Virus record (IMG/VR): IMGVR_UViG_3300035034_002381
Span: 1-64,000 of that record
Reading direction: 5' to 3' (one strand)
Origin: a virus
Taxonomy: Duplodnaviria; Heunggongvirae; Uroviricota; Caudoviricetes
Length of the DNA: 64,000 nt
In this document: piece by piece, positions 11,328 to 62,587 of the stretch
How the letters are laid out: each line of letters starts with the position of its first letter
How positions within the stretch are numbered: the first letter of the stretch is position 1
The notes under the pieces: model-generated
Told to the model about the DNA's origin: nothing
Databases searched by the model: none
The model's input: the letters and a program-made list of their open reading frames with translations, nothing else
Translations under genes and position numbers: made by a program

Positions 11328-11598
11328 GAATAGTATGACCTTTTTATTAGGCATTACGTATGTTATCGGATACTTTTTAAGTATCATAATCCTAAAAAGA
11401 TTTCACCATATTTTGGATATTCCAGATTATAATTCATATCCAAAATATAATGAATATTCAAGCAATGCACAAGCATACACAATGTGGTCAATTGTATGGC
11501 CGTTATTTTGGGTCTTAAAAATCATAGTTCTTCTTTTCGAAAAACTTATTAATTTAACTAAATATATACTAAATGGAAACTCAAGCTCAAGAAAGTAA
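11326..11598 (+). CDS. small putative membrane protein
   Basis: 90 aa with hydrophobic segments; start codon embedded in tandem repeat. Confidence 0.35.
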   Translation: MNSMTFLLGITYVIGYFLSIIILKRFHHILDIPDYNSYPKYNEYSSNAQAYTMWSIVWPLFWVLKIIVLLFEKLINLTKYILNGNSSSRK

Positions 11599-12508
11599 TA
11601 GAATAATCAAAGAAATTCATTCTTCTTTTTATTCAATGGATCAAGAAACTGATACATATCTTCAACGCCAAATTCAAGCTGCGTATGACGAATCTATCAA
11701 AGGCTCTTTAGAGAAGACTATCAAAAAATATGGTTTTAATAATGCCAAAAACTCTGACATTTTTGATAAAGCATTACTTGAAAGTCGGGAAGAATTAAAT
11801 GATGTCTTAAACGAATGTTCAGTGACATATCCAGGTAAAAAGTTTATTACTGATGAACAAATAGCACAGCTTTGTATCAAATATAATTTATTACTAACAA
11901 CACCAGATAGATTTATTGGTGAAATACCAGAACGTAATATCCAAGAGTTGAACGACTTTAATCCAAAAGGTAGCGAAAAAAAGGCGTTTTTTGATCCCAA
12001 AGTTTTTTATAAATTATATAACTTTATAAGAGAATATGAAGAGAAGCATTATTATATGAATAAAAATCTAAAAAAATCTATTGCAATGATTTATCGATCA
12101 TTTATGAATCATAGTAACATGGATTCAATACTTTTTCCAGATAATAATAAATATATTGTTCATGGTGTCAATGAAGATAAATCAATCACCACAACTGAAT
12201 TAGGTATTCAAACAGCAAAGAAAATATCTGAAGAATTATCTAAGAAAGAAAGAAATTCTGTACCTATTTTACCGTTGTTTTCACAAACTATGATAGCAGC
12301 GACATCTGATTTACTTGATATTCCTAAACTAGGATTGATCAAGAATAAAAGAAATGAACTTGTTTTAGGTCTTAATTCAAAACAATTTAAAGAAAATTTT
12401 CTACCTGATCCAATTGTACTACATAAAGTAAAACGTGGTGCTATTATTATAACTGCTTGGGGCTTGGAATCTCAAGATGAACTAGTATTCAATCCTATTA
12501 TTAATTGA
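11573..12508 (+). CDS. hypothetical protein
   Basis: 311-aa ORF. Confidence 0.55.
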   Translation: METQAQESNRIIKEIHSSFYSMDQETDTYLQRQIQAAYDESIKGSLEKTIKKYGFNNAKNSDIFDKALLESREELNDVLNECSVTYPGKKFITDEQIAQLCIKYNLLLTTPDRFIGEIPERNIQELNDFNPKGSEKKAFFDPKVFYKLYNFIREYEEKHYYMNKNLKKSIAMIYRSFMNHSNMDSILFPDNNKYIVHGVNEDKSITTTELGIQTAKKISEELSKKERNSVPILPLFSQTMIAATSDLLDIPKLGLIKNKRNELVLGLNSKQFKENFLPDPIVLHKVKRGAIIITAWGLESQDELVFNPIIN

Positions 12509-12712: not shown

Positions 12713-14710
12713 ATGAAAAAACTATTACTATTATTAATGCTATTTTCTTCTGTGAATTTATTTTCACAAGAAAATTATTTGATCCTTGATACCATTGGTA
12801 TGGATCAATACGAAAAACAAATTTTTGAGGAAAAAGTAAATTCCCCAGAATCTAACGAAGAGATTTCATGTTTAACCTTATTTGCTGGATCCAGACATGA
12901 ATTTAATTCAAAGTTAAAATCAATTAACGAATCAAAAAGCAATGTTGATATTAACGAAACTATTAGAATTCCCGTTGTTTATCATATTATGCACATTACC
13001 AAATTTGGTCTTGGTGGAGTTCCTTTCGAATCAGGACTAATTAGCAAACAACAAGTGTGGTCTGCTTTGGATGATCATATTAAAGGATTCCAAGCATATG
13101 TTGGGACTCGTCAAGAAACGGGATATGATACTAATATAGAATTTTATTTAGCAAACCTGGATGAAGAAGGAAATTTATTTGACGGTGTTATTTATTATGA
13201 TATGGACACAGTCCCCTGGGTAACTACTGAGGAAAGAGAACAATTTTTTAATTTCGGAATGTTTGGTATTGGACTTGATGATTTCTTAATCAAAAATAAC
13301 ATTTCATTAGACCCTGATAGATATCTAAATGTTTACATTACTCCAGAGATTTCTGGTAATGATGGAGGTAATGGGATCCAAGGATATGCATTTTTTCCAG
13401 GTGGTACTCAAGCACTTTGGGGACAAACAAATTTATCAAATATAGTAGGATTACCTTCAGTAAACTATTATGATGCTGATTTTGATGGTATAATGGACGA
13501 AGGAGTGGGGCCTTTACTTAAACCCAGTGCTCAAGAAAATGATACCCATCCACACGAAACCGGACATAATTTCCGTCTTTATCATACATTCCAAGGACAA
13601 AGTTGTGCAATTGAAGGTAATTGTGATACCCAAGGAGATGGAATCTGTGATACGGAGCCAACCCCACGTAATACCCAATGTAATTATAATGGGTGTCCGA
13701 CTCCTACCCCCGTTTCTAATAAGAATTATATGTCATATTCAGAATGCAGGTTTGAATTTACCGAAGACCAAAACCATGAAATGCGATCTTCTTTCACTGA
13801 AGATCTACCATTACTTGTTAGCAGTATTGATTCGGGATTATGTTATATTCCAAGACAAACCCAAGTTGAAATGATCATCCCACAATCAAACGATATAACA
13901 GGATGTCCCGATTCTCCTTTCCTTTCTTTTACTGTAAGAAACCTAGGTCCTGAAGTTGATTCAACAGGAATCCCGGTTATGTTAACAAATCTTGTTATAG
14001 CTTATGGAAATGATTTGTCTAACGTTGACACGTTTGAATTTAATTTAAATTTAGGTCCTTTCCAATATGATGATTTAGTTTTACCTTCTGTAGATAATCA
14101 AAGTTCAAATAGAAAGATCAAATTACTTTCTGTTAACGGATTTCCGGTAGAAGATTCAAGCACTCTTTCTACTAATCTTCCAGTAGGACCTAATGAATTA
14201 ATTGTAGTTTGCCAACCAAACTGTTCATCAATACAAGATAATTATTGGAAAGTTACAAATTTAAATACTGGAACTATTGCATTCCAAAGTGAATATTATC
14301 CTGTTAATTATTCAGGACCTCCTATCGAAACAAGGATCTGTTTACCTGGAGGCAATTATCAATTTTCATTAATTGATGAATCTGAAAATGGTTGGAATGG
14401 TACTTTTTGTAATCCCGATTTTTTCGATGAACCATTTATGGAAGTTTATTACAATGGATCCTTATGTCAATCTATACAAGGTGATGAATTTAATAGTTCT
14501 GAGTGGTCATTTACAAATTGTAACACTAGTACTCAGGGACTGATTGAAAATGAAGAAGAACCTGTTTTAGAATATGAGTACTATACTCAACAAATGGAAA
14601 GAGTAGAATTTGAAGATATTGTTACAAACCAATTCTTTATAATTTATACTTATGAAAAATCTGAAAGTTCTAGAGAGTTGATCGATAGAGATTGGATCAT
14701 AAAACAGTAA
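12713..14710 (+). CDS. secreted zinc metallopeptidase, metzincin-like (HExxHxxxxxH; M43/pappalysin-like), Cys-rich
   Basis: Bacteroidetes-type signal peptide MKKLLLLLMLFSSVNLFSQ; motif HETGHNFRLYH; many Cys in the region around it. Confidence 0.55.
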   Translation: MKKLLLLLMLFSSVNLFSQENYLILDTIGMDQYEKQIFEEKVNSPESNEEISCLTLFAGSRHEFNSKLKSINESKSNVDINETIRIPVVYHIMHITKFGLGGVPFESGLISKQQVWSALDDHIKGFQAYVGTRQETGYDTNIEFYLANLDEEGNLFDGVIYYDMDTVPWVTTEEREQFFNFGMFGIGLDDFLIKNNISLDPDRYLNVYITPEISGNDGGNGIQGYAFFPGGTQALWGQTNLSNIVGLPSVNYYDADFDGIMDEGVGPLLKPSAQENDTHPHETGHNFRLYHTFQGQSCAIEGNCDTQGDGICDTEPTPRNTQCNYNGCPTPTPVSNKNYMSYSECRFEFTEDQNHEMRSSFTEDLPLLVSSIDSGLCYIPRQTQVEMIIPQSNDITGCPDSPFLSFTVRNLGPEVDSTGIPVMLTNLVIAYGNDLSNVDTFEFNLNLGPFQYDDLVLPSVDNQSSNRKIKLLSVNGFPVEDSSTLSTNLPVGPNELIVVCQPNCSSIQDNYWKVTNLNTGTIAFQSEYYPVNYSGPPIETRICLPGGNYQFSLIDESENGWNGTFCNPDFFDEPFMEVYYNGSLCQSIQGDEFNSSEWSFTNCNTSTQGLIENEEEPVLEYEYYTQQMERVEFEDIVTNQFFIIYTYEKSESSRELIDRDWIIKQ

Positions 14711-14868
14711 ACAAACAATGTGGGTGTATAGAAATGTACACTCACATTCTAACTAAATTTTTATGTAGCAGATGATGAAGTAGCTAAGAATCAAAAATTA
14801 CGAAAATGGCTTGTGTTACCCAAATGGTAAACTGACTTTTCGGGGATTTCTTAAATCAAAAATAAAAC

Positions 14869-15075
14869 ATGGAAAAAGTAAGAATCGTTCAAGATGAAAG
14901 TAGTCATTGGTACATAATCCCTAATAAAAAATTGGAAGATTTTTATGAAGATTCTGTAAACATTGAAATGTGTGATAATGGGAATTTTGATAGAAAATGG
15001 GCGCAATATGCTACAGGCGGCAGCCCTAATAATATTCAATTATATGCAAATTTAGAAGTTTATTTTTCTATGTGA
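14869..15075 (+). CDS. small hypothetical protein
   Basis: 68 aa. Confidence 0.35.
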   Translation: MEKVRIVQDESSHWYIIPNKKLEDFYEDSVNIEMCDNGNFDRKWAQYATGGSPNNIQLYANLEVYFSM

Positions 15076-17119: not shown

Positions 17120-19195
17120 ATGAACAAAGATTCTAATGTATTATTAATACTTGAAAGATCTTCATCAAATCTAGATGTTAACAAGGAATCGGGTGATTAT
17201 ATTCTCGAAGGTATTTTTGCTCAATTTGGAGTTGAAAACAATAACAAAAGGATTTATGAGGAAAAAGAGTATTTACCACATCTCGAATACTTAAAAAAGA
17301 AAATTTCAGAAAATCGATTGATGGGAGAACTTGATCACCCAGAAAAATTTGAAATTGCTTTAGACAAAGTATCTCACGTAATTGAGAATATTGAATATGA
17401 TCAAGCAAAACGCCAGATTAAAGGGCGTGTACGTATTTTAGATACGCCATCCGGAAAAATCGCAAAGAGTCTAATCGACTCTAATATTCCTATTAGTATT
17501 TCATCACGAGCTGCTGGTTCTGTGAGTGAAAATAAAACTGTTTCTATTAAGAGAATTTTTACTTATGATTTAGTTGCTGATCCAGGTTTTGAAGATGCAC
17601 AATTATCAAGAATAAATGAATCATTTGGTTTAGACAACGAAAATAATCTACAAATTTTTGATGCTTCTAGATGGGACAACAATTTTTCGTTTGATGAAAA
17701 AGAAAAAGAAAAGCCTGTTGAGGCAATAAAAGAAAATAAAGAAAATACTACAGATATGAAAGAATTTGTGACAATTGAAAGCATGGAACGCTATTCATTA
17801 ATGGTCAAAGAAGAAATTGCTAAAATCAATACACGATTAGAAACTCTGAATGAGAGTAATGCTAATTCTGATGAAACAGCAGAACTTAGAAAAACCGTTG
17901 ATAATTTAGTAGGGTATGTTAATGAAATGGCTACCGAAATTAATCAAAACAGAGAATACATGTCATATACTGCTGAAATGCTTGACGAAAGTATTTCTTG
18001 GTCAGAAAATGAGATCGGTAATCAAGTTACTAAATTAATTGAATATACTGAATCTGAATTGGCTGTTCATCTTGATGGTTTAATTGAACACAATAACTAT
18101 CTTGCAGAAAAATTAAACACGACTATTGGATACGTTAATGAAGAATTGGCTCCAATTTTAGATGAGTCTATTAATCACAATGATTATTTAGTTGAACAAA
18201 TTGCTAATAACCGAAAATATACTGAGTATCTTGCTGAAAATGCTGTAGACTCAACAAATTTTGATTCGTTAGTAGAATATACTGAACATGTATATGAAAA
18301 TGCTGCTGGAAAATTTGAAGGTAAAATTAATGAATCTGCAACTGCTGAGGATGTAATTAAAAAACATAAACTTAAAACACATCACGATGTTGCTAAGTTT
18401 ATAGGAGATTTTTATGATTTACCAGATACAATTAAAGGATCTACCGATAAATTCACATTTAAAGACGTTGAGGACAACGTAATTAAAGTTGATGGTAAAG
18501 CAGGAACAGTAGACGGTAAAAAATTATCTCTGGCGGGATTGGTTGATCTTATGTCAGGTGGTGATTTTGATCTTCTTATTGAAAATCAAGCTAATAAAAT
18601 TAACGAAAATAAAAACGTATCAACAGATATTGAAAATCGATACATGAGTATCAATGAAAAAATTGACGCGGCTCTTGAGCAGATCAAGAAAACAAAGACT
18701 GAAGAAATCACAGAGTCTAAACGTCATCCTTTCACCAAACTACTCAACGAAAGTAATAGAGCTGCTTTCACTGAGTTAGGAAAAACCGAAAAAGAAAAGG
18801 TTTCAAAAGCTCTAAATGAAAACGGTATTTTAAGTACTGTAAAACTTAACGAAAAATTCACTTCATTGTTAGAAGGTAATTTCGAAATTGTTGAAGAGCC
18901 TAAATGGTTATCTGAAGCACCAGACAAGTATAAAGCTATTTTTGAAAGTTTGAATGAGGAAACTCAGGATAAACTTAGAGCTCAAGCTTCATGGTACGAA
19001 GGTAAACTTAAATCTCCTTATCAAATCGAAAATTTCTGGGCAACTAGAGGACTGAACGAAGACGTTGAGTTGAAGAATCTGAAAGACGATGCTGATGTAA
19101 AACTTATTAAAGAAAGTAATGATAGATCTAAAGATCTGGGTTATTCTTCTGATCGAGTTGCTGCAATTAAACAAGGTCTGAAAAGATTCAAATAA
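17120..19195 (+). CDS. prohead maturation protease (HK97/S78-like N-terminal domain) fused to a scaffolding-like coiled-coil region
   Basis: N-terminal ~150 aa with GELDHPE and ISISSRAAGS resembling the S78 His and Ser motifs; remaining ~540 aa acidic, helical and repeat-rich; immediately upstream of capsid gene. Confidence 0.55.
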   Translation: MNKDSNVLLILERSSSNLDVNKESGDYILEGIFAQFGVENNNKRIYEEKEYLPHLEYLKKKISENRLMGELDHPEKFEIALDKVSHVIENIEYDQAKRQIKGRVRILDTPSGKIAKSLIDSNIPISISSRAAGSVSENKTVSIKRIFTYDLVADPGFEDAQLSRINESFGLDNENNLQIFDASRWDNNFSFDEKEKEKPVEAIKENKENTTDMKEFVTIESMERYSLMVKEEIAKINTRLETLNESNANSDETAELRKTVDNLVGYVNEMATEINQNREYMSYTAEMLDESISWSENEIGNQVTKLIEYTESELAVHLDGLIEHNNYLAEKLNTTIGYVNEELAPILDESINHNDYLVEQIANNRKYTEYLAENAVDSTNFDSLVEYTEHVYENAAGKFEGKINESATAEDVIKKHKLKTHHDVAKFIGDFYDLPDTIKGSTDKFTFKDVEDNVIKVDGKAGTVDGKKLSLAGLVDLMSGGDFDLLIENQANKINENKNVSTDIENRYMSINEKIDAALEQIKKTKTEEITESKRHPFTKLLNESNRAAFTELGKTEKEKVSKALNENGILSTVKLNEKFTSLLEGNFEIVEEPKWLSEAPDKYKAIFESLNEETQDKLRAQASWYEGKLKSPYQIENFWATRGLNEDVELKNLKDDADVKLIKESNDRSKDLGYSSDRVAAIKQGLKRFK

Positions 19196-19213: not shown

Positions 19214-21007
19214 ATGAAACTTTTAAACGAACAAAAGATCTATGATGAGTGGGCTCCTATGCTAGAGGAGGAAACTTCAATCAAAGATTCTTCAAAATTG
19301 GGATGGATGACTAAATATTGTCACTACCATTCATTAAATGAAGCATTCACTGCACCTGCAGCTGGATTGCTTAACACGCCAGGTATGGGTAATGTAACTC
19401 CTGCTGGAGCTGCTGCCGGTGGTGCTAATGCATTCTACGGAAGTACTACTACTGGTTCAGGAGATAAATTCCCTTCATTATTGCCACTATCTATTCAGGT
19501 AGCTGCAAGAACTGTAGGATTTGATATCGTTCCTGTTATTCCTATGAACGGACCTTCGGGGGTTCTTACATACATGGATTATGTCTATGCTGGTGGAAAA
19601 GGAGCATTCGGAGCACCTCCAGGTGCTGCAGGTGCTGCAAACCCAGGTCTTAACGCTTACGCTGACAAGCCGTTAGTATTCAAAATCCAACTTGTTGGAG
19701 ATGAGAAAACTGCTTTCGATGCTGCTGCTGCGGGTGATGAATTCTTATTTGCTTCTGGTGCACTTGCTGCAACTGGAAACACACTACGTGTTGCTAAAAT
19801 CGGTCCTTCTAGAATCGACGGTCACTCTATTTTTAGAGTAATTGGAGAATCTGGTGATGCTGATGCGACTGGCGGTGCAGCTGCTGCTGTAGCGACAACT
19901 CTTACATCGCCACAATCTATCACATTGGCTTCTGTATTTACAGGAACTGCTGCGATGATTACTGCGGCTGGTGCTTTAGTTGATGCTGCTGATTCAGTAG
20001 TTAATCGTCCAGAACTTGTTAAAGCTCTTGAAGATCACGTTCAAGGTTTTGCTGGTGCAGGTCCAAACGATGATGAAGCATGGTCAGGAAATGCGACTGA
20101 TGGTACTGTATCTTACGAACCAATGCGAAGAGGTGTAGGTGAAGAGCAGTACTTCAGAACTATGGGACTTCAAGCTTTCACGAAATTCATTGAAGCTGAA
20201 ACTTTCCAAGTTGCTGCTAATGTTACTACAGAACAAATTCAAGATTTACAACGTCAGTATGGAATCGATGTGATTGCAATGATCGAGAACTCATTAGTAA
20301 ATGATATCTCTCAATCTATTAACAAGCACATTCTTTCTAGAGCTTTCGCTCTTGGATGGGGTGCAAACCTTACATTCAGAGATGTTGAAGGTGCAAACCT
20401 TAACCTTGAATTGGTAAACACTGGAACTGGTGTTACTGCAACTCCTGCTTACATTGATAAGACTGGAGTAGGTACTGCATCTGTATATCCTGCTTTCCAA
20501 GAATTTGCTGGAGCTGCTGCTGCTGCATCATTGGAAAACCAAGCAACATTCCAACGAAGAGTATATTCTAAAGTACTTGCTGCTGGAAACGTTGTTACTC
20601 AAAGAGGACGTAGAGGACCTGCAAACTTCATTGTTACTAACCTTCAGTTAGCGACAGCGTTGCAAGATTCTGCACAATTCTCTTGGGCACCAATGGCAAA
20701 CACCATTAACCAAAACAACGGTTCGCTTTACCCAGTGGGTACTGTAGCCGGAATGACTGTTTATGTAGATCCTAACATGGGATTCTCTGATAACAGAATT
20801 CTTGTTGGACGTAAAGGTGCTGATGAAGAACCAGGACTTAAATTCATGCCTTACTTAATGGCTGAATCAATCCAAACAATTGCTGAAGGTACAATGGCTC
20901 CGAAAGTTGCCGTAAAATCACGTTATGCTTTAGTTGAAGCTGGACACCACCCAGAAACAATGTACTTTACTATTGCAGTAAATGTACCTGTAGGTGGATT
21001 AGTATAA
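19214..21007 (+). CDS. major capsid protein (putative)
   Basis: 597 aa, Ala/Gly/Thr-rich, directly follows protease-scaffold, followed by strong terminator. Confidence 0.6.
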   Translation: MKLLNEQKIYDEWAPMLEEETSIKDSSKLGWMTKYCHYHSLNEAFTAPAAGLLNTPGMGNVTPAGAAAGGANAFYGSTTTGSGDKFPSLLPLSIQVAARTVGFDIVPVIPMNGPSGVLTYMDYVYAGGKGAFGAPPGAAGAANPGLNAYADKPLVFKIQLVGDEKTAFDAAAAGDEFLFASGALAATGNTLRVAKIGPSRIDGHSIFRVIGESGDADATGGAAAAVATTLTSPQSITLASVFTGTAAMITAAGALVDAADSVVNRPELVKALEDHVQGFAGAGPNDDEAWSGNATDGTVSYEPMRRGVGEEQYFRTMGLQAFTKFIEAETFQVAANVTTEQIQDLQRQYGIDVIAMIENSLVNDISQSINKHILSRAFALGWGANLTFRDVEGANLNLELVNTGTGVTATPAYIDKTGVGTASVYPAFQEFAGAAAAASLENQATFQRRVYSKVLAAGNVVTQRGRRGPANFIVTNLQLATALQDSAQFSWAPMANTINQNNGSLYPVGTVAGMTVYVDPNMGFSDNRILVGRKGADEEPGLKFMPYLMAESIQTIAEGTMAPKVAVKSRYALVEAGHHPETMYFTIAVNVPVGGLV

Positions 21008-21032
21008 GAAATATCTTAAACTATATAAATAC

Positions 21033-21067
21033 CGAGAGGGGATCGAAAGATTCCCTCTTTTTTTTTG
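21033..21067 (+). terminator. rho-independent terminator (GAGAGGGGA-TCGAAAG-ATTCCCTCTC plus TTTTTTTTT)
   Basis: Strong hairpin then 9 T. Confidence 0.8.
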
Positions 21068-21070
21068 CAT

Positions 21071-21099
21071 AAAACTTTATTCAATATTGTATATATAAT
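21071..21099 (+). promoter_or_regulatory. promoter-like motif AAAACTTTATTCAAT-N6-TATATAAT (copy 2)
   Basis: Matches 10985-11014. Confidence 0.45.
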
Positions 21100-21116
21100 A
21101 TACAATTATTAGAGCC

Positions 21117-22802
21117 ATGAACACTTCAGTCAAAGATATTATAAAAAACGTAAAATCCACCAAAGGTTTAGCAGTAAAAATATCAAATTCAGAAAGTCTA
21201 AATAAAGAACTTTTAGAATTAACCAAATACCTACCAACAGACTCTAGTATATCTGAGCGCATTTATAATATCTTAAATAATATTGATGTACAAAGTCTTT
21301 GTATTTGTGGTGACACATTACCATTCATTAAAATTTCCAAAGGTTACAAAACTTCGTGTGGTAATAAAGAATGTAAGTCGCGAACACGGAGTAATATTAA
21401 TAAAGAATCCAGTAAGAAAATAGACTGGGGCGAATCGATCAATAAACAACAAAAAACCAATTTACAAAAATACGGTTATGTTTCTAATCTTGCATCACCT
21501 AAAGAACGAGAAAAACATAAAGTTATTCTTAAAGAATTGACTGGATATGAACACCCATTACAGAATCCTGAATCTAAAAAGAAAAGACATAACACTTGTA
21601 TAAAAAATCATGGTACATTAAATTTCATCCATTCAAATAAATCAATACAAACGTTACAAGCAAAATATAATACCACTGCCACTAATTGTGCTCAAATACC
21701 CGAAATTCAAGATAGATCTGCCAAAACCCAATCTATAAATGCTGATAAAGCTTTATATCAAAAAATTGATAAAATAAATAAAACTATAATAGATCTTAAT
21801 AAAACAAATGCTAATATTGAGTGTGTGGGTTGTGGTCGTATTATGAATATACATCGGCAAGCACTCAATTATTATATTCGAAATTCTATTGACAATTGTT
21901 GGTCTTGCAACCCTGATTTTTCACCATTTGCCAGTAACAAAGAAAAGATGATTGTTACATGGCTCACTGATATAGGTATCACAAATATTGACACAAATCG
22001 CCGGAGATTTGGTGGTAAAGAAATAGATATTTTCTTAAATGATTATAACCTAGGAATTGAATTCAATGGCACATATTGGCATAGTGAATTACACAAAGAA
22101 AAAAATTACCATTTAAATAAAAAAACATATATTGAGAACTTGGGTTTCAAGTTGATTAATGTTTGGGAAGATGATTGGGAAGATGATATAAAACGTAATA
22201 TAATTCAAAGCAGAATTAAAAATTTAATAAACCTAAATCACCGCAAAATATATGGGCGTAAATGTCAGATAGTTCAAATATCTAACAAAGAAGCTAAAGA
22301 ATTTTATACCAATAATCATATTCAAGGTCATGCTATATCAGAAATTAACTACGCATTAGTATATGATAATGAAATTGTTTCAGTCATGAGCTTTTCTAGT
22401 AAAAATAGATTTTTCATTAAGAAAAATAGGGATAATGAAATAGAGTTGACTAGATTTGCAAATTTGATAGGTGTAAGTGTTTTAGGTGGTTTCTCTAAAC
22501 TATTCAAACATTTTTTGAAAAATAATGACCATGATACCATTATTTCATTTGCAGAATTTGATTGGACTGATGAGACTAATAATGTTTATCTTATGAATGG
22601 TTTTAAATTTTTAGGGAATTCTGGACCATCGTATTCATGGGTTGTTAATGGAAAACGGTTTTCTAGATTTAACTTTTCTAAGCAAAAATTAATCAAAGAA
22701 GGTTATGATAAGAATAAAACAGAAGTCGAAATAATGCACGAAAGAAAATATTATCGAGCTTGGAATAGTGGTAACTTAAAATTTATTTATAATAAATTAT
22801 AA
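21117..22802 (+). CDS. free-standing homing-endonuclease-like protein (Zn-ribbon motifs plus Vsr/PD-(D/E)xK-like core)
   Basis: CxxC...CxxxC pairs (CICGD...CGNKEC; CVGCGR...CWSC); segment GGKEIDIFLNDYNLGIEFNGTYWHSE resembles Vsr/DUF559-type nuclease core; inserted after capsid gene and flanked by a duplicated capsid 3' end. Confidence 0.45.
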   Translation: MNTSVKDIIKNVKSTKGLAVKISNSESLNKELLELTKYLPTDSSISERIYNILNNIDVQSLCICGDTLPFIKISKGYKTSCGNKECKSRTRSNINKESSKKIDWGESINKQQKTNLQKYGYVSNLASPKEREKHKVILKELTGYEHPLQNPESKKKRHNTCIKNHGTLNFIHSNKSIQTLQAKYNTTATNCAQIPEIQDRSAKTQSINADKALYQKIDKINKTIIDLNKTNANIECVGCGRIMNIHRQALNYYIRNSIDNCWSCNPDFSPFASNKEKMIVTWLTDIGITNIDTNRRRFGGKEIDIFLNDYNLGIEFNGTYWHSELHKEKNYHLNKKTYIENLGFKLINVWEDDWEDDIKRNIIQSRIKNLINLNHRKIYGRKCQIVQISNKEAKEFYTNNHIQGHAISEINYALVYDNEIVSVMSFSSKNRFFIKKNRDNEIELTRFANLIGVSVLGGFSKLFKHFLKNNDHDTIISFAEFDWTDETNNVYLMNGFKFLGNSGPSYSWVVNGKRFSRFNFSKQKLIKEGYDKNKTEVEIMHERKYYRAWNSGNLKFIYNKL

Positions 22803-22863
22803 TATATACAACATATATACTTGTTGAGGCGGGTCACCACCCAGAAACAATGTTCCCTCTTTT

Positions 22864-22918
22864 TATGTTTAAAACTTATATTAATCTTAGATATATAAAC
22901 TACATATAATCAAATAAT
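22864..22918 (+). promoter_or_regulatory. second copy of promoter-like element ATGTTTAAAACTTATATTAATCTTAGATATATAAAC...TATAAT
   Basis: Near-identical to 6523-6576. Confidence 0.5.
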
Positions 22919-22966
22919 ATGAAGACATTTAATGAATACGAACAAATCAATGAATCTGGTAATTAA
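22919..22966 (+). pseudogene. decayed member of the MK-x-F-x-EF family (MKTFNEYEQINESGN then stop; reading continues in another frame)
   Basis: Start-region paralogy to 6577 copy including upstream promoter element; premature stop after 15 codons. Confidence 0.35.
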
Positions 22967-23235
22967 AACTGCACAAAAAATTCAAATAGATCTTAAGAAA
23001 TTTCTTGAAGATGTAGTAATACCAGCATCTAATGGATATGTTAGAAATGAAGGTGATGCAGCTTTATTGTTATACGATATACTTGCACAAAAATATGATA
23101 TTACAACATAGACGCTATGAATGACGACGAAAAAATATAGTTTAAGTTCCAAATTATAGATTTAGTTAAGAAAAATCCCAACAATGAAAAACTGGGTGAA
23201 AAGATTAGATCTTTTACTAAAAATATGATATAAAG

Positions 23236-23484
23236 ATGAAAAACATAAAAGATTTTGGTGAGTTTAAATTAAATGAAAAAAGAAATGAGGCACTGAAAAA
23301 GGTTAAAACATCTTCGACTGTGCTAGATAATTTTGTTATGGATGTATTAAAAACTCAAAAGCTTTATCAAAACGAAATTCCTAAGCTACTTGCTAATGAT
23401 AAAGAATTAATAACTGAATTCAAAGAAGGTCGACAAGCATTTAATGATCTTCGAATATTAAATGATATGCTTGCAAAGAAATAA
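23236..23484 (+). CDS. small protein with capsid-targeting-like N-terminus MKNIKDFGEFKLNE
   Basis: 82 aa; family N-terminus. Confidence 0.55.
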   Translation: MKNIKDFGEFKLNEKRNEALKKVKTSSTVLDNFVMDVLKTQKLYQNEIPKLLANDKELITEFKEGRQAFNDLRILNDMLAKK

Positions 23485-23492
23485 ATAATACA

Positions 23493-23702
23493 ATGAAAAA
23501 CTTAAAAACATTTGAACAGTTTGTAACTGATAAGCTAATGGAAGGTGCAATGTCTGATATACATCTTATGGCTAAAAATTCTAAAACTATAGAAAATTTT
23601 ATAAAAGCTTTTTATAAAAAATACGATAATAAAGTCAAGAAGGGAAAAAGCACTGATGAATGGATAATCAGTCTATATAATGATATGGAATCAAAAACAT
23701 AA
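23493..23702 (+). CDS. small protein with capsid-targeting-like N-terminus MKNLKTFEQFVTDKLME
   Basis: 69 aa; family N-terminus. Confidence 0.55.
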   Translation: MKNLKTFEQFVTDKLMEGAMSDIHLMAKNSKTIENFIKAFYKKYDNKVKKGKSTDEWIISLYNDMESKT

Positions 23703-23711
23703 ATACCACTA

Positions 23712-24743
23712 ATGAAAAATTTAAAAACATTTGAACAATTTGAACTAGAAAATCTTAATGAGAAAGTGGGTTATAATCAAATTTCACACAAAAATAAAAG
23801 TTTTGTAGTTTATAATCATAAAGGAATTGAAGATTTATCTAAAAAATATAAAATTGTCAACCTAAAGAATTCTGTAGGACCTGATATAGAATTTCCTGCA
23901 ATAGCAGAATTAGATAATAATAAACCTTTTATTAGAAACATCTATAGACATGAGCTTGATAAATTAGAAAAAGGAATCTTTTTCGAATCCCATAATTTAG
24001 ACAAAGATGCTAAACTTTTTGAATCTGGAGCGATAACTAAAATTTTGACAGATGCAGGATTTATCAGTTTTGAAGACTCTGATGAATATGATTATGATAT
24101 AGGAATAGGTGGAGTAATTAACACTGTTGATCCAGGTATAGCTAAAGATATAGCAGATGAATTAAATGATAATGGTATATCTGCGAAAGCAAAAAGAGAT
24201 ACTGTAATTGTTGAATCTGTGAATGAGGGAATTTACGCTGATAAACTCGCAAAAGGATTATGGGATGGTGACATGGATTTTTCCGATTTAAGTAAAAGTG
24301 AACAAGACTTAATCGACAAGTTCGTCAAAAGAAATCTTGGTATCTTTAAAGACGAAAGATTTGAGATTCCCTTTCCTGATGAAGCTGCTGACACTGGAGA
24401 GTTTTGGGATGAAATTCAAAAAGATAAAGATTACTCAAAATTTGCAAAGGCTGTTAAAAAAGCAAGTTTGGGTGAAATTGAGTTTGTGAACGAATCTATT
24501 AATCAGATTCCTGGAGAAATACAATTTAATGTTGAACCACATACGTTTCTTAAAGATCCTAGAGAACTAGACAAAGCAGTAGCTGAAGTTGATAAATATT
24601 TAGCGGGCGGTAAAGAAAACATTGGCGGATTTATGATAGATCGATATTTAAAAGATTCTTTTGATCTTGATGCGTTTATTGACTCTGTGCATTTACATTA
24701 CCCTAGACCAATGATTCCTGAAATTCAATCCAAGAATCTATGA
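23712..24743 (+). CDS. acidic protein with capsid-targeting-like N-terminus MKNLKTFEQFELENLNE
   Basis: 343 aa; family N-terminus. Confidence 0.6.
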   Translation: MKNLKTFEQFELENLNEKVGYNQISHKNKSFVVYNHKGIEDLSKKYKIVNLKNSVGPDIEFPAIAELDNNKPFIRNIYRHELDKLEKGIFFESHNLDKDAKLFESGAITKILTDAGFISFEDSDEYDYDIGIGGVINTVDPGIAKDIADELNDNGISAKAKRDTVIVESVNEGIYADKLAKGLWDGDMDFSDLSKSEQDLIDKFVKRNLGIFKDERFEIPFPDEAADTGEFWDEIQKDKDYSKFAKAVKKASLGEIEFVNESINQIPGEIQFNVEPHTFLKDPRELDKAVAEVDKYLAGGKENIGGFMIDRYLKDSFDLDAFIDSVHLHYPRPMIPEIQSKNL

Positions 24744-59025: not shown

Positions 59026-59817
59026 ATGAGTACTAAAAACCAAGAAAAAAGATTATTATCCCAAGATCTTAAAGAGAAAAATTGGATTGGTGAAGTAGTA
59101 GAAAACGATGATCCCGAAATAGAATTCAGATGTAAAATAAAAGTCTTTGGACTATTTGATGATTTAGAAACAGATTCTATTCCCTGGGCATTTCCTGCTA
59201 ATCAAGGAATTTTTGCGTCTGAAGCGGGTGGTGCAGGTAGTGGTTCAGTTCCAAAAATCGGTACTTTACTCAAGGTGACTTTTGAAAATGGAGATATATA
59301 TTCTCCTATGTATCATGCAATACAAAATATTAACCCAGCACTTAAAGAAGAGATTAGAGATGATTATCTTGGATCACATGTGATTGCATATGATGAAGAT
59401 GCAGATTTAAAGATTTTATACCAACCTGATACCGGAATAAAAATCCATCTCAGAGATTCCCATGTTACAATTAATCCTGATGAAAGCATTACAATAGAAC
59501 ATAGGGATTCTTTAAGTATCATAGAACTTGTAGGCGATACAGTGAATGTAGTTACACAGAATAGAATAGAAATGACAGCAGATACGGATATTATTGCGAC
59601 TGCACCACAAGCTACTATTAATGGTACACAAAGAACTACGTTAGGTCCATTAGGTAATTTTGGTGCAGTAGGTTCTGAACCTTTATGGGCATTTCTAAAA
59701 AGTTTAGCAGCCGTAGTTGATGCTAAATGGCCTCCAACACCAGGTATTAATGCTGCAGCTGCAGCGGCAGGAGAAGTAGCAAGTACATCACTCAACAATA
59801 AAGTCTCAGTTCCGTAA
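59026..59817 (+). CDS. baseplate hub/spike protein, gpV / gp5 N-terminal OB-fold like
   Basis: GEVVENDDPEIEFRCKIKVFGLFDD...IPWAFPANQGIFASEAGGAGSGSVPKIGTLLKVTFENGDIYSPMY matches the gpV/VgrG N-terminal pattern. Confidence 0.6.
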   Translation: MSTKNQEKRLLSQDLKEKNWIGEVVENDDPEIEFRCKIKVFGLFDDLETDSIPWAFPANQGIFASEAGGAGSGSVPKIGTLLKVTFENGDIYSPMYHAIQNINPALKEEIRDDYLGSHVIAYDEDADLKILYQPDTGIKIHLRDSHVTINPDESITIEHRDSLSIIELVGDTVNVVTQNRIEMTADTDIIATAPQATINGTQRTTLGPLGNFGAVGSEPLWAFLKSLAAVVDAKWPPTPGINAAAAAAGEVASTSLNNKVSVP

Positions 59818-59827
59818 AAAATAAAAA

Positions 59828-62587
59828 ATGTCATTAGAACAAGCAACTTCAGAACTCAACAGATTATTAAACACTATACCAAATAGATCGGAAGAGATTC
59901 AAAATTTTATTGAGTTACAAAAAGAATCTTTCAGAAACATTGATGGTGAATTATTTCCTAAGACAGGATTTGAAGAATTATCTTCCGCTGAGTTATTAAA
60001 TATTATAGATCAAACTTATCCTGGGTTCAAAGAAAACTTTCAAGAAATATTCGATACAATTGTACCTGTCACAATTAACGAATTTGACTCTGATGTCTAT
60101 AGCGAAAAGGAAATTCTTGAAGTAATTGAAGATTGGAAGAAAGAATGTGCTATTAGATCGTTAGGTCAAGAAAATTTTTCTAAAGAAGAGATTATAGACT
60201 CTGTTAAAGAGTGTCGGCAACAAGTAGAAAATCCTATCATTCCGTTCACAAGACAAGAAATTATTAAGGCTGCATGTGAAAAAATTATAGAAGAATCGGA
60301 AGTAAATCCAGAAGCAGTCATTCCAGGAAACCCCGATATTGAAGATGTTATTGGTGTCGACACAATAGAACCTGAACTAGGAGTCCAAGAATTAGACAAT
60401 TTACTAGAAGCAATCAAGGATCCGACTGATGTGATAATTATCGGAAATACTTTAGACACAATCCTAGAAATTTTAGTAAAAGTTGGTGATCAAATCTCAT
60501 GTGCCACACCGTTATTTAGAACAGAATCTGGAATAATACCCGGAGGATTTGACTCAGGAGTTGTAAAAGAAATATTTGTGACTGTCGGAGATTCAATACA
60601 AAACACAGAATTAATTCACATAAATGTTCTTTCAAAAAGTAAGTTAGAAAAATCTTTTGCTGAATCTAAAGAACAGATATCAGAAATTCAACAAGCTGTG
60701 GCTCTAAAGGAACAACAATATCAAGCTGAAAAGAAATGGTATTTTTTAAGATTAGAAGAAGCTTGGTTATCAGGTCGCTATGAATCATATGAATATTATT
60801 TTTCTGGTTTTACTGAAGCATTACAAAGAAGAGATACAGAAAATCAAAGATTACAGGATTTAACACAAGAAATTACTGATATCGAAGATCAAATCAATAC
60901 ATTATTTCAGGGTTATGAAACTACATTTGGAACTGGATCATTACCATTAGCAACAAGACAAAATTTAAGAAGTTTAATAGATCTTAGAAATGTTATTTAT
61001 ATTCAGATTCAGGGTGCCGTTTCCATTATAAACCAAGCGAATGGTGAAATCTTACAATTAAGAAATGAACAATACATTTTTGCTGCTACTGAGGCTGATA
61101 TTAATGCGGAAATCACGTCCGAAACTTCTATTATTGACGATTCTATTTTTTCTGTAGATATTCAAGGTAATCCAGCACCGAATGGAAATTTTATTGTTAA
61201 TCCAATTTTTGATGGTGGTACCCAAGTTCAATTCTTTATTCCTTCACAAGAAACAGTGAATGCGTATCCATCATCAAGAACTTTGGCAAAAGGAGTTCAA
61301 CAAAGAATCGAAGAATTCACAAATGAATTAGGAATCAATAATACTATTTCTAGATATATGGACGATGACGATTATTCGTTTAGTTATAATTTATCGTTTA
61401 CACGATTCCCTATAGATATTGATGGAGATGACGATGACGCATGGATCGAAGCTGAAATTATATCTAGAGATAATAGGCGAGATAGATTGTCGGGACCCTT
61501 TCATAATTTACGAGTAGGATTTTATTTGTTTGTTACAGAATCTAGTGATACATTAAAATCTACACCAGCATGGAATATTGAAGTTAAGGAAAAGGAAAAC
61601 TTATTAAGACTAAATATTGATAGTGCTATTAATAATGCTGAAAATAGAATTCGAGATTATTCTAAACAATATGGCCACATTGCTATAAAACTTCAGGACG
61701 CGTTTTTAGAAATACCTGGCACTAGTACTTTAGATTCATTTAGAATTTCTCTAGAAAATAAAGGGGCTGAACGACAAGCAGCCGAAGAATTAGTCTCAAC
61801 TATTAGAGGTGGATTAGAATCAGCAGAAGAAAAAATTCAACAATTAGAAGAAACTCTGAATTCAATAGATAATAAGACTTGCGAATATTATAAGATTTAT
61901 TCCACAGAACTCAGAAATGATATTAATTTTAAATTATGTATTTGGCCACAAGCTACATCTTTAAACGGTAATGGTGGTAGTGAAAATGGAGTACCATTAG
62001 TAAATGAGGAAATTAATTATAGATCTAATCCAAGATCATTAGAAGAATCTCCACCAATAACTGATCTAGAATGGTGGAAAAAATTCTGTAATTTAGCAAC
62101 AATATTTAATTTAGTACCCATTTATTGGCCTATTGGATTATTAATTCCTAATCCTAGTGGTATACTCAAAATTCCTTTACCAGTTATTTGGAGACCTATA
62201 TTTGTATTACAGACTCCATTAGCATTGATTGTAATTGGAATTGCACAAGCCGGAGTATTACCTGGACCATTTGTTTTTGTACTAAATCCTAATGCGTTTA
62301 GTTTGGGGCCAGTAAGTTTAAATTCTTGTTGGTTTACTGGTGCAGTCAGACCATTCAAAAAAATTAAAAATAAACCAGGATCTCAAATTTTACCTATTGC
62401 ACCAATTATACAAATAGGATTGAACAAAATTGACATAAATCCGAGTGCTACTTCTTTGATTCCATTTATTAAGGATGATCTGCCACCATACGAAAGACTT
62501 TCTTTAAATAACATTCTATTTTTGTTATTCTTGAATAGTTGGTGTAGTGCTGGCAAGAAAAGCCAAGGATTTTTTACTAACCCCTAA
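59828..62587 (+). CDS. large baseplate-associated protein with Pro/Gly-rich hydrophobic C-terminus
   Basis: 919 aa immediately after spike gene. Confidence 0.5.
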   Translation: MSLEQATSELNRLLNTIPNRSEEIQNFIELQKESFRNIDGELFPKTGFEELSSAELLNIIDQTYPGFKENFQEIFDTIVPVTINEFDSDVYSEKEILEVIEDWKKECAIRSLGQENFSKEEIIDSVKECRQQVENPIIPFTRQEIIKAACEKIIEESEVNPEAVIPGNPDIEDVIGVDTIEPELGVQELDNLLEAIKDPTDVIIIGNTLDTILEILVKVGDQISCATPLFRTESGIIPGGFDSGVVKEIFVTVGDSIQNTELIHINVLSKSKLEKSFAESKEQISEIQQAVALKEQQYQAEKKWYFLRLEEAWLSGRYESYEYYFSGFTEALQRRDTENQRLQDLTQEITDIEDQINTLFQGYETTFGTGSLPLATRQNLRSLIDLRNVIYIQIQGAVSIINQANGEILQLRNEQYIFAATEADINAEITSETSIIDDSIFSVDIQGNPAPNGNFIVNPIFDGGTQVQFFIPSQETVNAYPSSRTLAKGVQQRIEEFTNELGINNTISRYMDDDDYSFSYNLSFTRFPIDIDGDDDDAWIEAEIISRDNRRDRLSGPFHNLRVGFYLFVTESSDTLKSTPAWNIEVKEKENLLRLNIDSAINNAENRIRDYSKQYGHIAIKLQDAFLEIPGTSTLDSFRISLENKGAERQAAEELVSTIRGGLESAEEKIQQLEETLNSIDNKTCEYYKIYSTELRNDINFKLCIWPQATSLNGNGGSENGVPLVNEEINYRSNPRSLEESPPITDLEWWKKFCNLATIFNLVPIYWPIGLLIPNPSGILKIPLPVIWRPIFVLQTPLALIVIGIAQAGVLPGPFVFVLNPNAFSLGPVSLNSCWFTGAVRPFKKIKNKPGSQILPIAPIIQIGLNKIDINPSATSLIPFIKDDLPPYERLSLNNILFLLFLNSWCSAGKKSQGFFTNP

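Follow-up and report, generated by a model that had tools for sequence, protein, structure and literature searches.

A Hef-type endonuclease gene and a duplicated capsid gene end at the capsid locus of an uncultured large phage

The locus

We analyzed a 64,000-nucleotide (nt) stretch of an uncultured large phage (Caudoviricetes), positions 1 to 64,000 of IMG/VR record IMGVR_UViG_3300035034_002381, which we call the window. Downstream of its gp23-like major capsid protein gene lies a gene for a homing endonuclease of the Hef type. Behind this gene are a noncoding second copy of the capsid gene's 3' end and, directly abutting it, a piece of the capsid gene's terminator (Table 1). We refer to this capsid fragment and terminator piece as the scar. 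A reading made from the sequence alone (the sequence-only reading) had noticed the repeat and had proposed that the gene encodes a mobile, free-standing homing endonuclease that had duplicated or imported flanking sequence. The contig is k141_21517 of ENA ERZ27315366. The nearest catalogued phages are uncultured huge phages and Prevotella Lak phages; related loci are cited below by L numbers.

TABLE 1 Features downstream of the capsid gene, in window coordinates. ORF, open reading frame; aa, amino acids; E, expect value; UTR, untranslated region.
Feature	Position	Strand	Remarks
Major capsid protein gene, gp23-like, intact	19214..21007	+	597 aa; Pfam Gp23, E 4e-35
Left (functional) repeat copy	20930..20963	+	Encodes LVEAGHHPETM, with one further base
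Capsid intrinsic terminator	21034..21067	+	11-bp stem, GAAA loop, T9 run
Endonuclease-associated upstream region	21068..21116	+	ATAAAACTTT...TATATATAAT; late-promoter-like core at 21090-21099, then 5' UTR
Segment absent from the endonuclease-less haplotype	21101..23673		2,573 bp
Free-standing Hef-type (EDxHD) homing endonuclease gene	21117..22802	+	561 aa
Domain: zinc (Zn) ribbon	residues ~62-86
Domain: DUF7487 helical repeats	residues ~100-220
Domain: second Zn ribbon	residues ~236-264
Domain: Vsr-like nuclease	residues ~270-370		E276, D304, N317, H322, D352
Domain: Mom-like GNAT	residues ~375-561 (window 22239-22799)		S460, R446
AT-rich spacer, endonuclease stop codon to capsid fragment	22803..22819	+	Presumed illegitimate joint
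Noncoding capsid 3' pseudo-fragment (right copy)	22820..22853	+	34 nt
Terminator 3' arm and T-run remnant, abutting the right copy	22854..22864	+	TCCCTCTTTTT
Putative ancestral capsid-downstream promoter region	22865..22931	+	ATGTTTAAAAC...TAGATATATAAACTAC at 22888-22903
Small ORFs d1 to d3, inside the polymorphic segment	22932..23702	+	59, 82, and 69 aa

The endonuclease gene and its product

The ORF between the capsid gene and the duplicated end matches phrog_3339 ("homing endonuclease") from end to end (E 7e-105) and is the only copy of its family in the window. Lak, RaK2-like, Campylobacter, and T4-like phages supply its database relatives, the "Hef-like homing endonucleases." By tblastn it aligns, with 91% coverage (E 7e-33), to a "Hef-like" gene located between nrdA and nrdB in Escherichia phage N2 (Tequatrovirus); our comparison with the Hef lineage was made through this N2 gene. 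The nrdA/nrdB intergenic position is the hef locus, and the product of hef cleaves nrdB, according to a review. The RaK2 homologue is located between two topoisomerase subunit genes. F-CphI was considered as a Hef-like lead and dropped; the literature shows it to have an Endo VII motif.

A profile built from 42 homologues matches the catalytic domain of I-Bth0305I (PDB 3R3P; E 3e-5). Searches of PDB with the single sequence and of NCBIfam gave no match, and 3R3P was reached only with the family profile. Hef-type enzymes have been placed within the Vsr-like EDxHD family (Taylor et al. 2011). In the alignment to 3R3P, D304 falls on D196, N317 on N208, H322 on H213, and E351/D352 on D222; among the 42 homologues no variation is seen at D304, H322, E351, and D352, and conservation is at least 90% at E276 and N317. 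The Pfam nuclease family MTES_1575 is matched by 24 of the 42 relatives and by the window protein at E 2.6e-6, below the gathering score, and Vsr is matched by one relative. Two Cys4-type ribbons are evident, one with C62, C64, and C81 invariant and the other with C239, C261, and C264 at least 90% conserved, and the DUF7487 helical repeats are present in all 42 relatives. The ribbon and helical modules of the N-terminal part are modeled at a predicted local distance difference test (pLDDT) score of about 85 to 90, and no NUMOD match was found. The sequence-only reading had named the Zn ribbon and the Vsr/PD-(D/E)xK-like nuclease; what it overlooked is the C-terminal domain.

The AlphaFold model of the 561-aa protein (mean pLDDT 88.9) has as its best structural match not a nuclease but phage Mu Mom (Foldseek, 8BV8, E 5e-6), followed by GNAT acetyltransferases; the match covers the C-terminal ~190 residues. 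Pfam Mom is found in 13 of the 42 relatives and misses the window protein itself. S460 and R446, which are invariant, align to Mom S124 and R111, at an hhalign probability of only 13%; Mom D149 corresponds to E480, and the equivalent of R151 is not conserved. The model points to a Mom-like GNAT fold for this domain, and any DNA modification by it is a prediction.

Rfam gave no match to a group I intron at the locus, and the capsid ORF is intact; because of these two observations we conclude that the endonuclease gene is free-standing, an intergenic ORF of its own next to an uninterrupted host gene. No transposase domain and no notable terminal inverted repeats were found, and the repeats do not have the form of the target-site duplication of a transposon or insertion sequence, since they are 34 and 11 nt long, imperfect, and internally deleted. 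Taken together, the homology results identify the ORF as a new member of the known Hef-type EDxHD family, located beside a capsid gene, which is a known type of site.

The capsid gene end and part of its terminator are duplicated

The intact capsid ORF terminates in the conserved GGLV*, and its relatives are 44 to 99% identical. A repeat search of the window aligned 20933-20963, inside this gene, with 22823-22853, behind the endonuclease gene, at 28 of 31 bases; the recurrence of the capsid 3' end is thereby confirmed, the sequence-only reading having begun the left copy at 20932. In the capsid reading frame the match is 34 nt long and begins one leucine codon earlier (TTA versus CTT), giving 20930-20963 versus 22820-22853. 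The resident copy reads TTA GTT GAA GCT GGA CAC CAC CCA GAA ACA ATG T, and the fragment reads CTT GTT GAG GCG GGT CAC CAC CCA GAA ACA ATG T. The window contains the 22-nt core, GGNCACCACCCAGAAACAATGT, at these two places only (100 shuffles give an expectation of 0.00), and no significant capsid match extends to the left of 22820. The GC content of the fragment is 53%, in surroundings of ~26 to 28% G+C.

All of the five differences between the copies are synonymous. If substitutions were random, the probability of a synonymous-only outcome would be ~2e-4 for five changes and 7e-3 for three. The states CTT, GAG, GCG, and GGT of the fragment are those found in the capsid genes of L020, L021, L023, L025, and L001. 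Because the differences are exclusively synonymous and the states are shared with the capsid genes of relatives, we conclude that the fragment derives from a functional capsid allele, whether ancestral or foreign, and has barely decayed. Its capsid-end sequence differs from the resident one as a separate synonymous allele, as would fit a flank that was imported or stranded. Nearer relatives (65 to 77% identical) encode H/Q-T-Q at the last three codons of the repeat, and for that reason the ETM state is either ancestral or imported. A nucleotide pattern for VEAGHHPETM (window 20933-20963), GTTGARGCNGGNCAYCAYCCAGARACNATGT, was found in 54 viral or metagenome loci (L032 to L083), 50 of which show capsid matches at 38 to 66% aa identity (one being the 99% haplotype described below).

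The capsid gene's own terminator has a stem (21034-21059) of -17.6 kcal/mol (z -4.5) and is the sole terminator-like site on the + strand between 17 and 27 kb of the window. Its 3' arm and T-run recur behind the fragment. The exact 11-mer TCCCTCTTTTT is present in the window only at 21052-21062 and at 22854-22864, so the direct joining of the right copy to the 3' half of the terminator, also proposed earlier, is established. Compared with the left side, the right side lacks the 5' arm of the terminator; 68 nt are missing between ATGT and TCCCTC. In a test for intrinsic terminators the remnant gave no stable hairpin (-7.6 kcal/mol, z +0.18; 111 of 200 shuffles folded equally well or better), and because it folds no better than the shuffles, 22854-22864 is a terminator remnant and not a functional hairpin. 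An identical scar is found in an independent assembly (Logan SRR7141805, locus L018), and therefore it is not an assembly artifact.

The regions flanking the endonuclease gene have different affinities. To its right, 22865-22931 is significantly similar to the region behind the capsid terminator of two relatives that have no endonuclease gene there, L021 (1 of 500 null values) and L025 (2 of 500), and also to the region behind the endonuclease gene of L019 (2 of 500). The promoter motif in this region, TAGATATATAAACTAC, does not form a dispersed repeat family in the window, which holds one exact copy and five matches with at most three mismatches (2.1 expected). To the left, 21068-21116 resembles the regions upstream of the endonuclease genes of L019 (score 51 versus a null of 18.4; 0 of 500) and L023 (3 of 500), and it shows no similarity to the capsid-downstream regions of the endonuclease-less L021 and L025.

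What follows the capsid gene in related phages

Carriage of an endonuclease gene behind the capsid gene is sporadic. L019 (capsid 85 to 86% aa identity) has an orthologous gene (73% aa) at the same place and on the same strand, and L028 (capsid 51 to 56%) has a gene of the same lineage (41 to 42% aa). The endonuclease of L020 (capsid 76 to 77%) is of a different lineage, being 63% identical to that of L023 and 35% identical to that of the window; L023 and L024 (capsid 66 to 68%) carry this second lineage as well. In Lak-A2, Lak-B1, and L076 (capsid 40 to 58%) the gene lies at the capsid 3' end in the opposite, convergent orientation. No endonuclease gene follows the capsid gene in L021 and L022 (capsid 70%), in L025 (73%), in L026 and L027 (65%), or in most of ~50 more distant loci (38 to 66%). 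Relatives thus do not all carry the gene, and, as described above, its product does have a nuclease-domain match. Sporadic carriage, the existence of 99%-identical phages without the gene, and the lack of an intron together support the suggestion that this is a mobile, free-standing homing endonuclease.

Two endonuclease types, A (window, L019, and L028) and B (L020 and L023), share one site, and their distribution conflicts with the capsid tree. Between the window and L028 the endonucleases are 42% and the capsid proteins 56% identical; between the window and L020 the values are 35% and 77%. Because the identities of the two proteins disagree, the site has been invaded, or its occupant replaced, more than once. 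Each endonuclease-bearing genome has different genes downstream, and the capsid gene is consequently the only flank that all of them share. These comparisons suggest that the site just downstream of the gp23-like capsid gene is a hot spot for such endonuclease genes.

L020 and L025 differ by a clean indel that is set between the T-run of the terminator and the promoter that follows; it has no capsid scar, and in this pair the ATAAACTT-type region comes in together with the endonuclease gene. Around the L019 orthologue, terminator arm, T-run, and promoter are directly repeated in the same way (score 42 versus a null of 19.7, standard deviation 2.7).

Some further observations concern the same family. 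Behind the L019 endonuclease gene (11566-11600) is a hairpin with an unusually large, 16-nt loop that contains CCAGTAGTGGATTAGT. This stretch is similar to the final codons of the capsid gene (CCTGTAGGTGGATTAGT) and directly adjoins TCCCTCTTTTTT, as does the fragment in the window. In L031 (Lak-B1; 4001-6504) a partial and a full Hef-like copy stand in tandem beside the capsid gene, an arrangement of Lak-B phages, and in L028 (1-291) an additional Hef-like fragment lies upstream of the protease gene. The Lak-B tandem copies and the L028 fragment look like signs of repeated invasion and decay. When viral contigs were scanned for the precise junction of the scar, none matched, and a search of viral contigs with the endonuclease protein gave no confirmed relative.

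Nearly identical genomes that lack the cassette

Three contigs from three other samples are ~99.3% identical to the window on both sides and lack 21101-23673. One (L068, the same as L088; JGI Ga0307983_1000289) came from a metagenome motif scan, and the others (L087 and L089, from two further ENA samples) came from cluster and contig look-ups. The missing 2.57 kb comprises the endonuclease gene with its 5' UTR, the scar, the TAGATATATAAACTAC promoter, the whole of d1 and d2, and d3 except for its final nine codons. All three contigs share one junction, at which ...TATATAATA is joined to ATGATATG... (in longer context, ...TTGTATATATAATA to ATGATATGTAATC...) with a 3-nt microhomology, ATA. The junction lies inside two similar late-promoter-like 11-mers, GTATATATAAT (21089-21099) and GTCTATATAAT (23666-23676). 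The first 33 nt of the 21068-21116 region (GCATAAAACTTT...TATATATAAT) are retained in this haplotype, and the 3' tail of d3 persists in all three contigs as noncoding sequence with an internal stop. The capsid repeat that was taken by the sequence-only reading to bound the insert is real, but the unit that is polymorphic among 99%-identical genomes is this 2.57-kb segment with promoter-like repeats at its borders.

The comparison with insert-lacking relatives that had been suggested earlier was possible, since such relatives exist. The 99%-identical ones, however, look like secondary deletions and not like virgin target sites, a reading that we hold to be probable for three reasons. The post-terminator sequence that they retain resembles the regions upstream of endonuclease genes (L019 and L023) and not the capsid-downstream regions of L021 and L025, and, between L020 and L025, the endonuclease gene brings the ATAAACTT-type region with it. 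The third reason is the noncoding 3' tail of d3 that the three contigs have kept. No homologues of d1 to d3 were found in any of the loci retrieved.

Other differences among these genomes were noted. A second indel, of ~2.3 kb (window 12765-15051), separates the window from L087 and removes a 665-aa Peptidase_M43-like ORF (12713-14710); its junction is a direct repeat, TTTTCT.CTGTGAATT, present at ~12744 and 15064. Alignment of the window with L068 fails at 24260-24457, inside d4 (23712-24743), and at 18371-18597, within the gene for the prohead protease/scaffold (17120-19195); both blocks have the look of in-frame indels or of segments replaced within coding sequence that is rich in repeats. 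The small ORFs d2, d3, and d4 (window 22920-24743) share the N-terminus MKN[IL]K.FE.F, and a 15-codon mini-ORF at 22920 (MKTFNEYEQ...) resembles a decayed member of the family. From these likenesses d2 to d4 look like a small family of tandem paralogues downstream of the capsid gene.

How the scar may have formed

The explanation that we favor, and consider probable, is that the cassette entered by homologous recombination in the capsid gene and by illegitimate joining downstream, leaving the capsid-end scar of a Hef-type homing endonuclease. The capsid gene of a recipient would have been broken in its 3' part and then repaired from an endonuclease-bearing relative. Because downstream genes differ between relatives, homology would have been available on the capsid side alone. 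Copying would have brought in the capsid end, terminator, promoter, and endonuclease gene of the donor, and the far end would have been joined illegitimately to the recipient's broken end. The capsid end, terminator, and downstream promoter that the recipient already had would thereby have been stranded as a second copy, and the subsequent deletion of 68 nt would have trimmed this copy to the fragment plus the 3' arm of the terminator. Later still, one lineage would have lost the endonuclease gene, the scar, and d1 to d3 by a microhomology deletion between the two late-promoter-like repeats. The layout of the window would accordingly be capsid end and terminator; endonuclease promoter and gene; and old capsid end, old terminator, old promoter, and downstream genes, an order that can be read from the match of the right flank to the post-terminator regions of endonuclease-less relatives. 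That the endonuclease made the break, the position of the cut, and the order of events are what we infer from this arrangement.

Several points weigh against this explanation. Cleavage by this protein, its target, and its homing are likewise inferred, from sequence. An additional 68-nt deletion is needed. Synonymous-only divergence is equally expected if an in-place duplicate remained unchanged while the functional copy drifted. The capsid allele of the endonuclease-less haplotype is that of the window (GAA GCT GGA), so no contrast between a target and an immune allele is visible, and the borders of that haplotype are promoter-like repeats, not the capsid repeat. No significant capsid scar was found behind the endonuclease genes of L020, L023, L028, L076, or Lak-A2. 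The second capsid-like stretch of L019, CCAGTAGTGGATTAGT, is marginal (1 to 31 of 1,000 shuffles in five of seven comparisons, 200 to 312 in the other two), and we do not rely on it. Among close relatives the conservation of the scar's capsid segment is only moderate (rank 470 of 1,851 30-nt windows); the idea that no part of the capsid gene is better conserved was rejected, since this segment is only above average. To these are added the two indels between the 99%-identical genomes, considered next.

Other explanations

The post-capsid region could be hypervariable through ordinary turnover of accessory genes and not through homing, with promoter and terminator repeats mediating illegitimate or short-homology recombination; the duplicated capsid end would then be a by-product in which the endonuclease had no part. 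Turnover would give just what is seen in the cassette indel, which is bounded by two late-promoter-like 11-mers with a 3-nt microhomology and which takes out three unrelated small ORFs besides, and the second 2.3-kb indel between the same two haplotypes (12765-15051) is bounded by a direct repeat. In addition, the post-capsid gene content is different in every relative. We nevertheless think this account unlikely. At least two endonuclease lineages, in two orientations, occur repeatedly at one spot beside the only conserved neighbor; the family has experimentally demonstrated homing-type activity; and exchange between genomes is suggested by the distinct synonymous allele that the fragment represents.

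It seems similarly improbable that the protein is instead a weapon resembling a restriction-modification system in a single polypeptide, in which the Mom-like domain modifies the phage's adenines and the fused nuclease attacks unmodified DNA of the host or of competitors, the patchy distribution reflecting turnover of conflict genes. The Mom/GNAT fold of the C-terminal 190 aa, the Pfam Mom matches among the relatives, and the invariance of the S124 and R111 equivalents would all suit this role, which has been proposed for nuclease-Mom fusions of jumbo phages (Iyer et al. 2021). That proposal is itself a prediction, however, and the replacement of Mom D149 by E480 and the lack of conservation at R151 tell against it. 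Members of the family sit between essential genes (nrdA/nrdB, topoisomerase subunits, capsid), as free-standing homing endonuclease genes do, and homing endonuclease activity has been reported for the prototype, Hef. The two roles are not mutually exclusive and could coexist.

An extension of the favored explanation would join both roles. The scar would be the fossil of one-sided homing, its left edge (~20925-20932) marking the Hef-type cut site in the capsid gene; the three clustered synonymous changes (GAA GCT GGA versus GAG GCG GGT) would make the resident allele immune, and the Mom-like domain would add self-protection by modification. We regard this as speculative and rather doubtful, but if true it would describe a homing endonuclease with restriction-modification logic built in.

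It is very unlikely that the fragment has been kept for a function, whether as terminator of the endonuclease transcript, as binding or decoy site of the endonuclease, or as homology arm for further homing. Its high GC content in an AT-rich region, the T-run that follows it, and the absence of any protein-changing difference from the capsid copy could be taken as signs of such retention. Against this, it does not fold into a stable hairpin (z +0.2), other endonuclease-bearing loci lack it, and it was deleted along with the endonuclease gene in the 99%-identical haplotype; its carriers are two near-identical genomes only, from which conservation cannot be judged. Finally, a chance match or an assembly chimera, for which only the AT-rich, repeat-prone context speaks, is refuted by the expectation of zero chance matches, the exact abutment of the 11-mer on the repeat, and the identical structure in the independent assembly.

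Context and significance

The window holds 41 gene-like ORFs of at least 150 aa, all on the + strand; a single exception on the - strand (59364-59846) lies almost wholly inside two + strand ORFs. Genetic code 11 yields long ORFs across window 1-64000, and there is no sign of the Lak type of stop-codon recoding. Stop-codon recoding has been reported for Lak phages.

Hef-type genes are abundant in huge phages. Among 8,000 candidates scored, 977 were homologues at E <1e-10, with up to nine matching places per huge-phage genome, and almost nothing is known of what these endonucleases cut. At the locus described here, nature provides two haplotypes, ~99.3% identical, of which one has the cassette and the other lacks it, and the scar suggests a region of the capsid gene in which cleavage could be tested. 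A nuclease-Mom fusion in an element that behaves as if mobile also bears on the two published readings of such proteins, as homing endonucleases and as restriction-modification-like weapons. In other respects this selfish element next to an essential gene is of the textbook sort, a clear if unremarkable instance of a mobile element of known type, with a recombination scar that is unusually legible.

Comparison with known systems

The closest counterparts are Hef of phage U5 and the "Hef-like" proteins of T4-like, RaK2-like, Campylobacter, and Lak phages. Homology to these is full length (29 to 37% identity over ~90% coverage), the layout of Zn ribbon, helical repeats, Vsr-like nuclease, and C-terminal domain is the same, and the genes are likewise intergenic and beside an essential gene. 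The neighbor differs, being the capsid gene here and nrdA/nrdB or topoisomerase genes there; in addition, the present gene is from an uncultured large phage, has kept a capsid-end scar, and encodes an endonuclease whose activity is predicted.

Promoter/terminator cassettes (PeSL elements), reportedly described by Arbiol and colleagues in 2010, are said to mediate shuffling in T4-type phages. The cassette deletion in the sister haplotype, between two promoter-like repeats, is of the same kind, but here the repeats are 11 nt long with a 3-nt microhomology and there is no family of stem-loop cassettes.

With I-Bth0305I (PDB 3R3P), the EDxHD prototype, the window protein shares a homologous Vsr-like catalytic domain with conserved E, D, N, H, and D residues. 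I-Bth0305I differs in being encoded by an intron in recA, in having NUMOD DNA-binding repeats and no Mom-like domain, and in being about half the size.

Phage Mu Mom and the nuclease-Mom fusions of jumbo phages (Iyer et al. 2021) have the same GNAT/Mom fold, with the S124 and R111 equivalents conserved. Unlike Mu Mom, the domain described here is fused to nuclease and putative DNA-binding modules, has E in place of D149, and has no conserved equivalent of R151.

Last, T4 SegG and MobE and the "HEG islands" (islands of homing endonuclease genes) beside capsid, terminase, and ribonucleotide reductase genes (Barth et al. 2023, PMC10448857) also place an endonuclease gene next to an essential, conserved gene. 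Flanking markers travel with the free-standing endonucleases of T4, and capsid neighborhoods are common sites. Those enzymes belong to the GIY-YIG, HNH, and T5orf172 families and spread by clean gene conversion, whereas the locus described here has one apparently illegitimate junction and a duplicated gene end.

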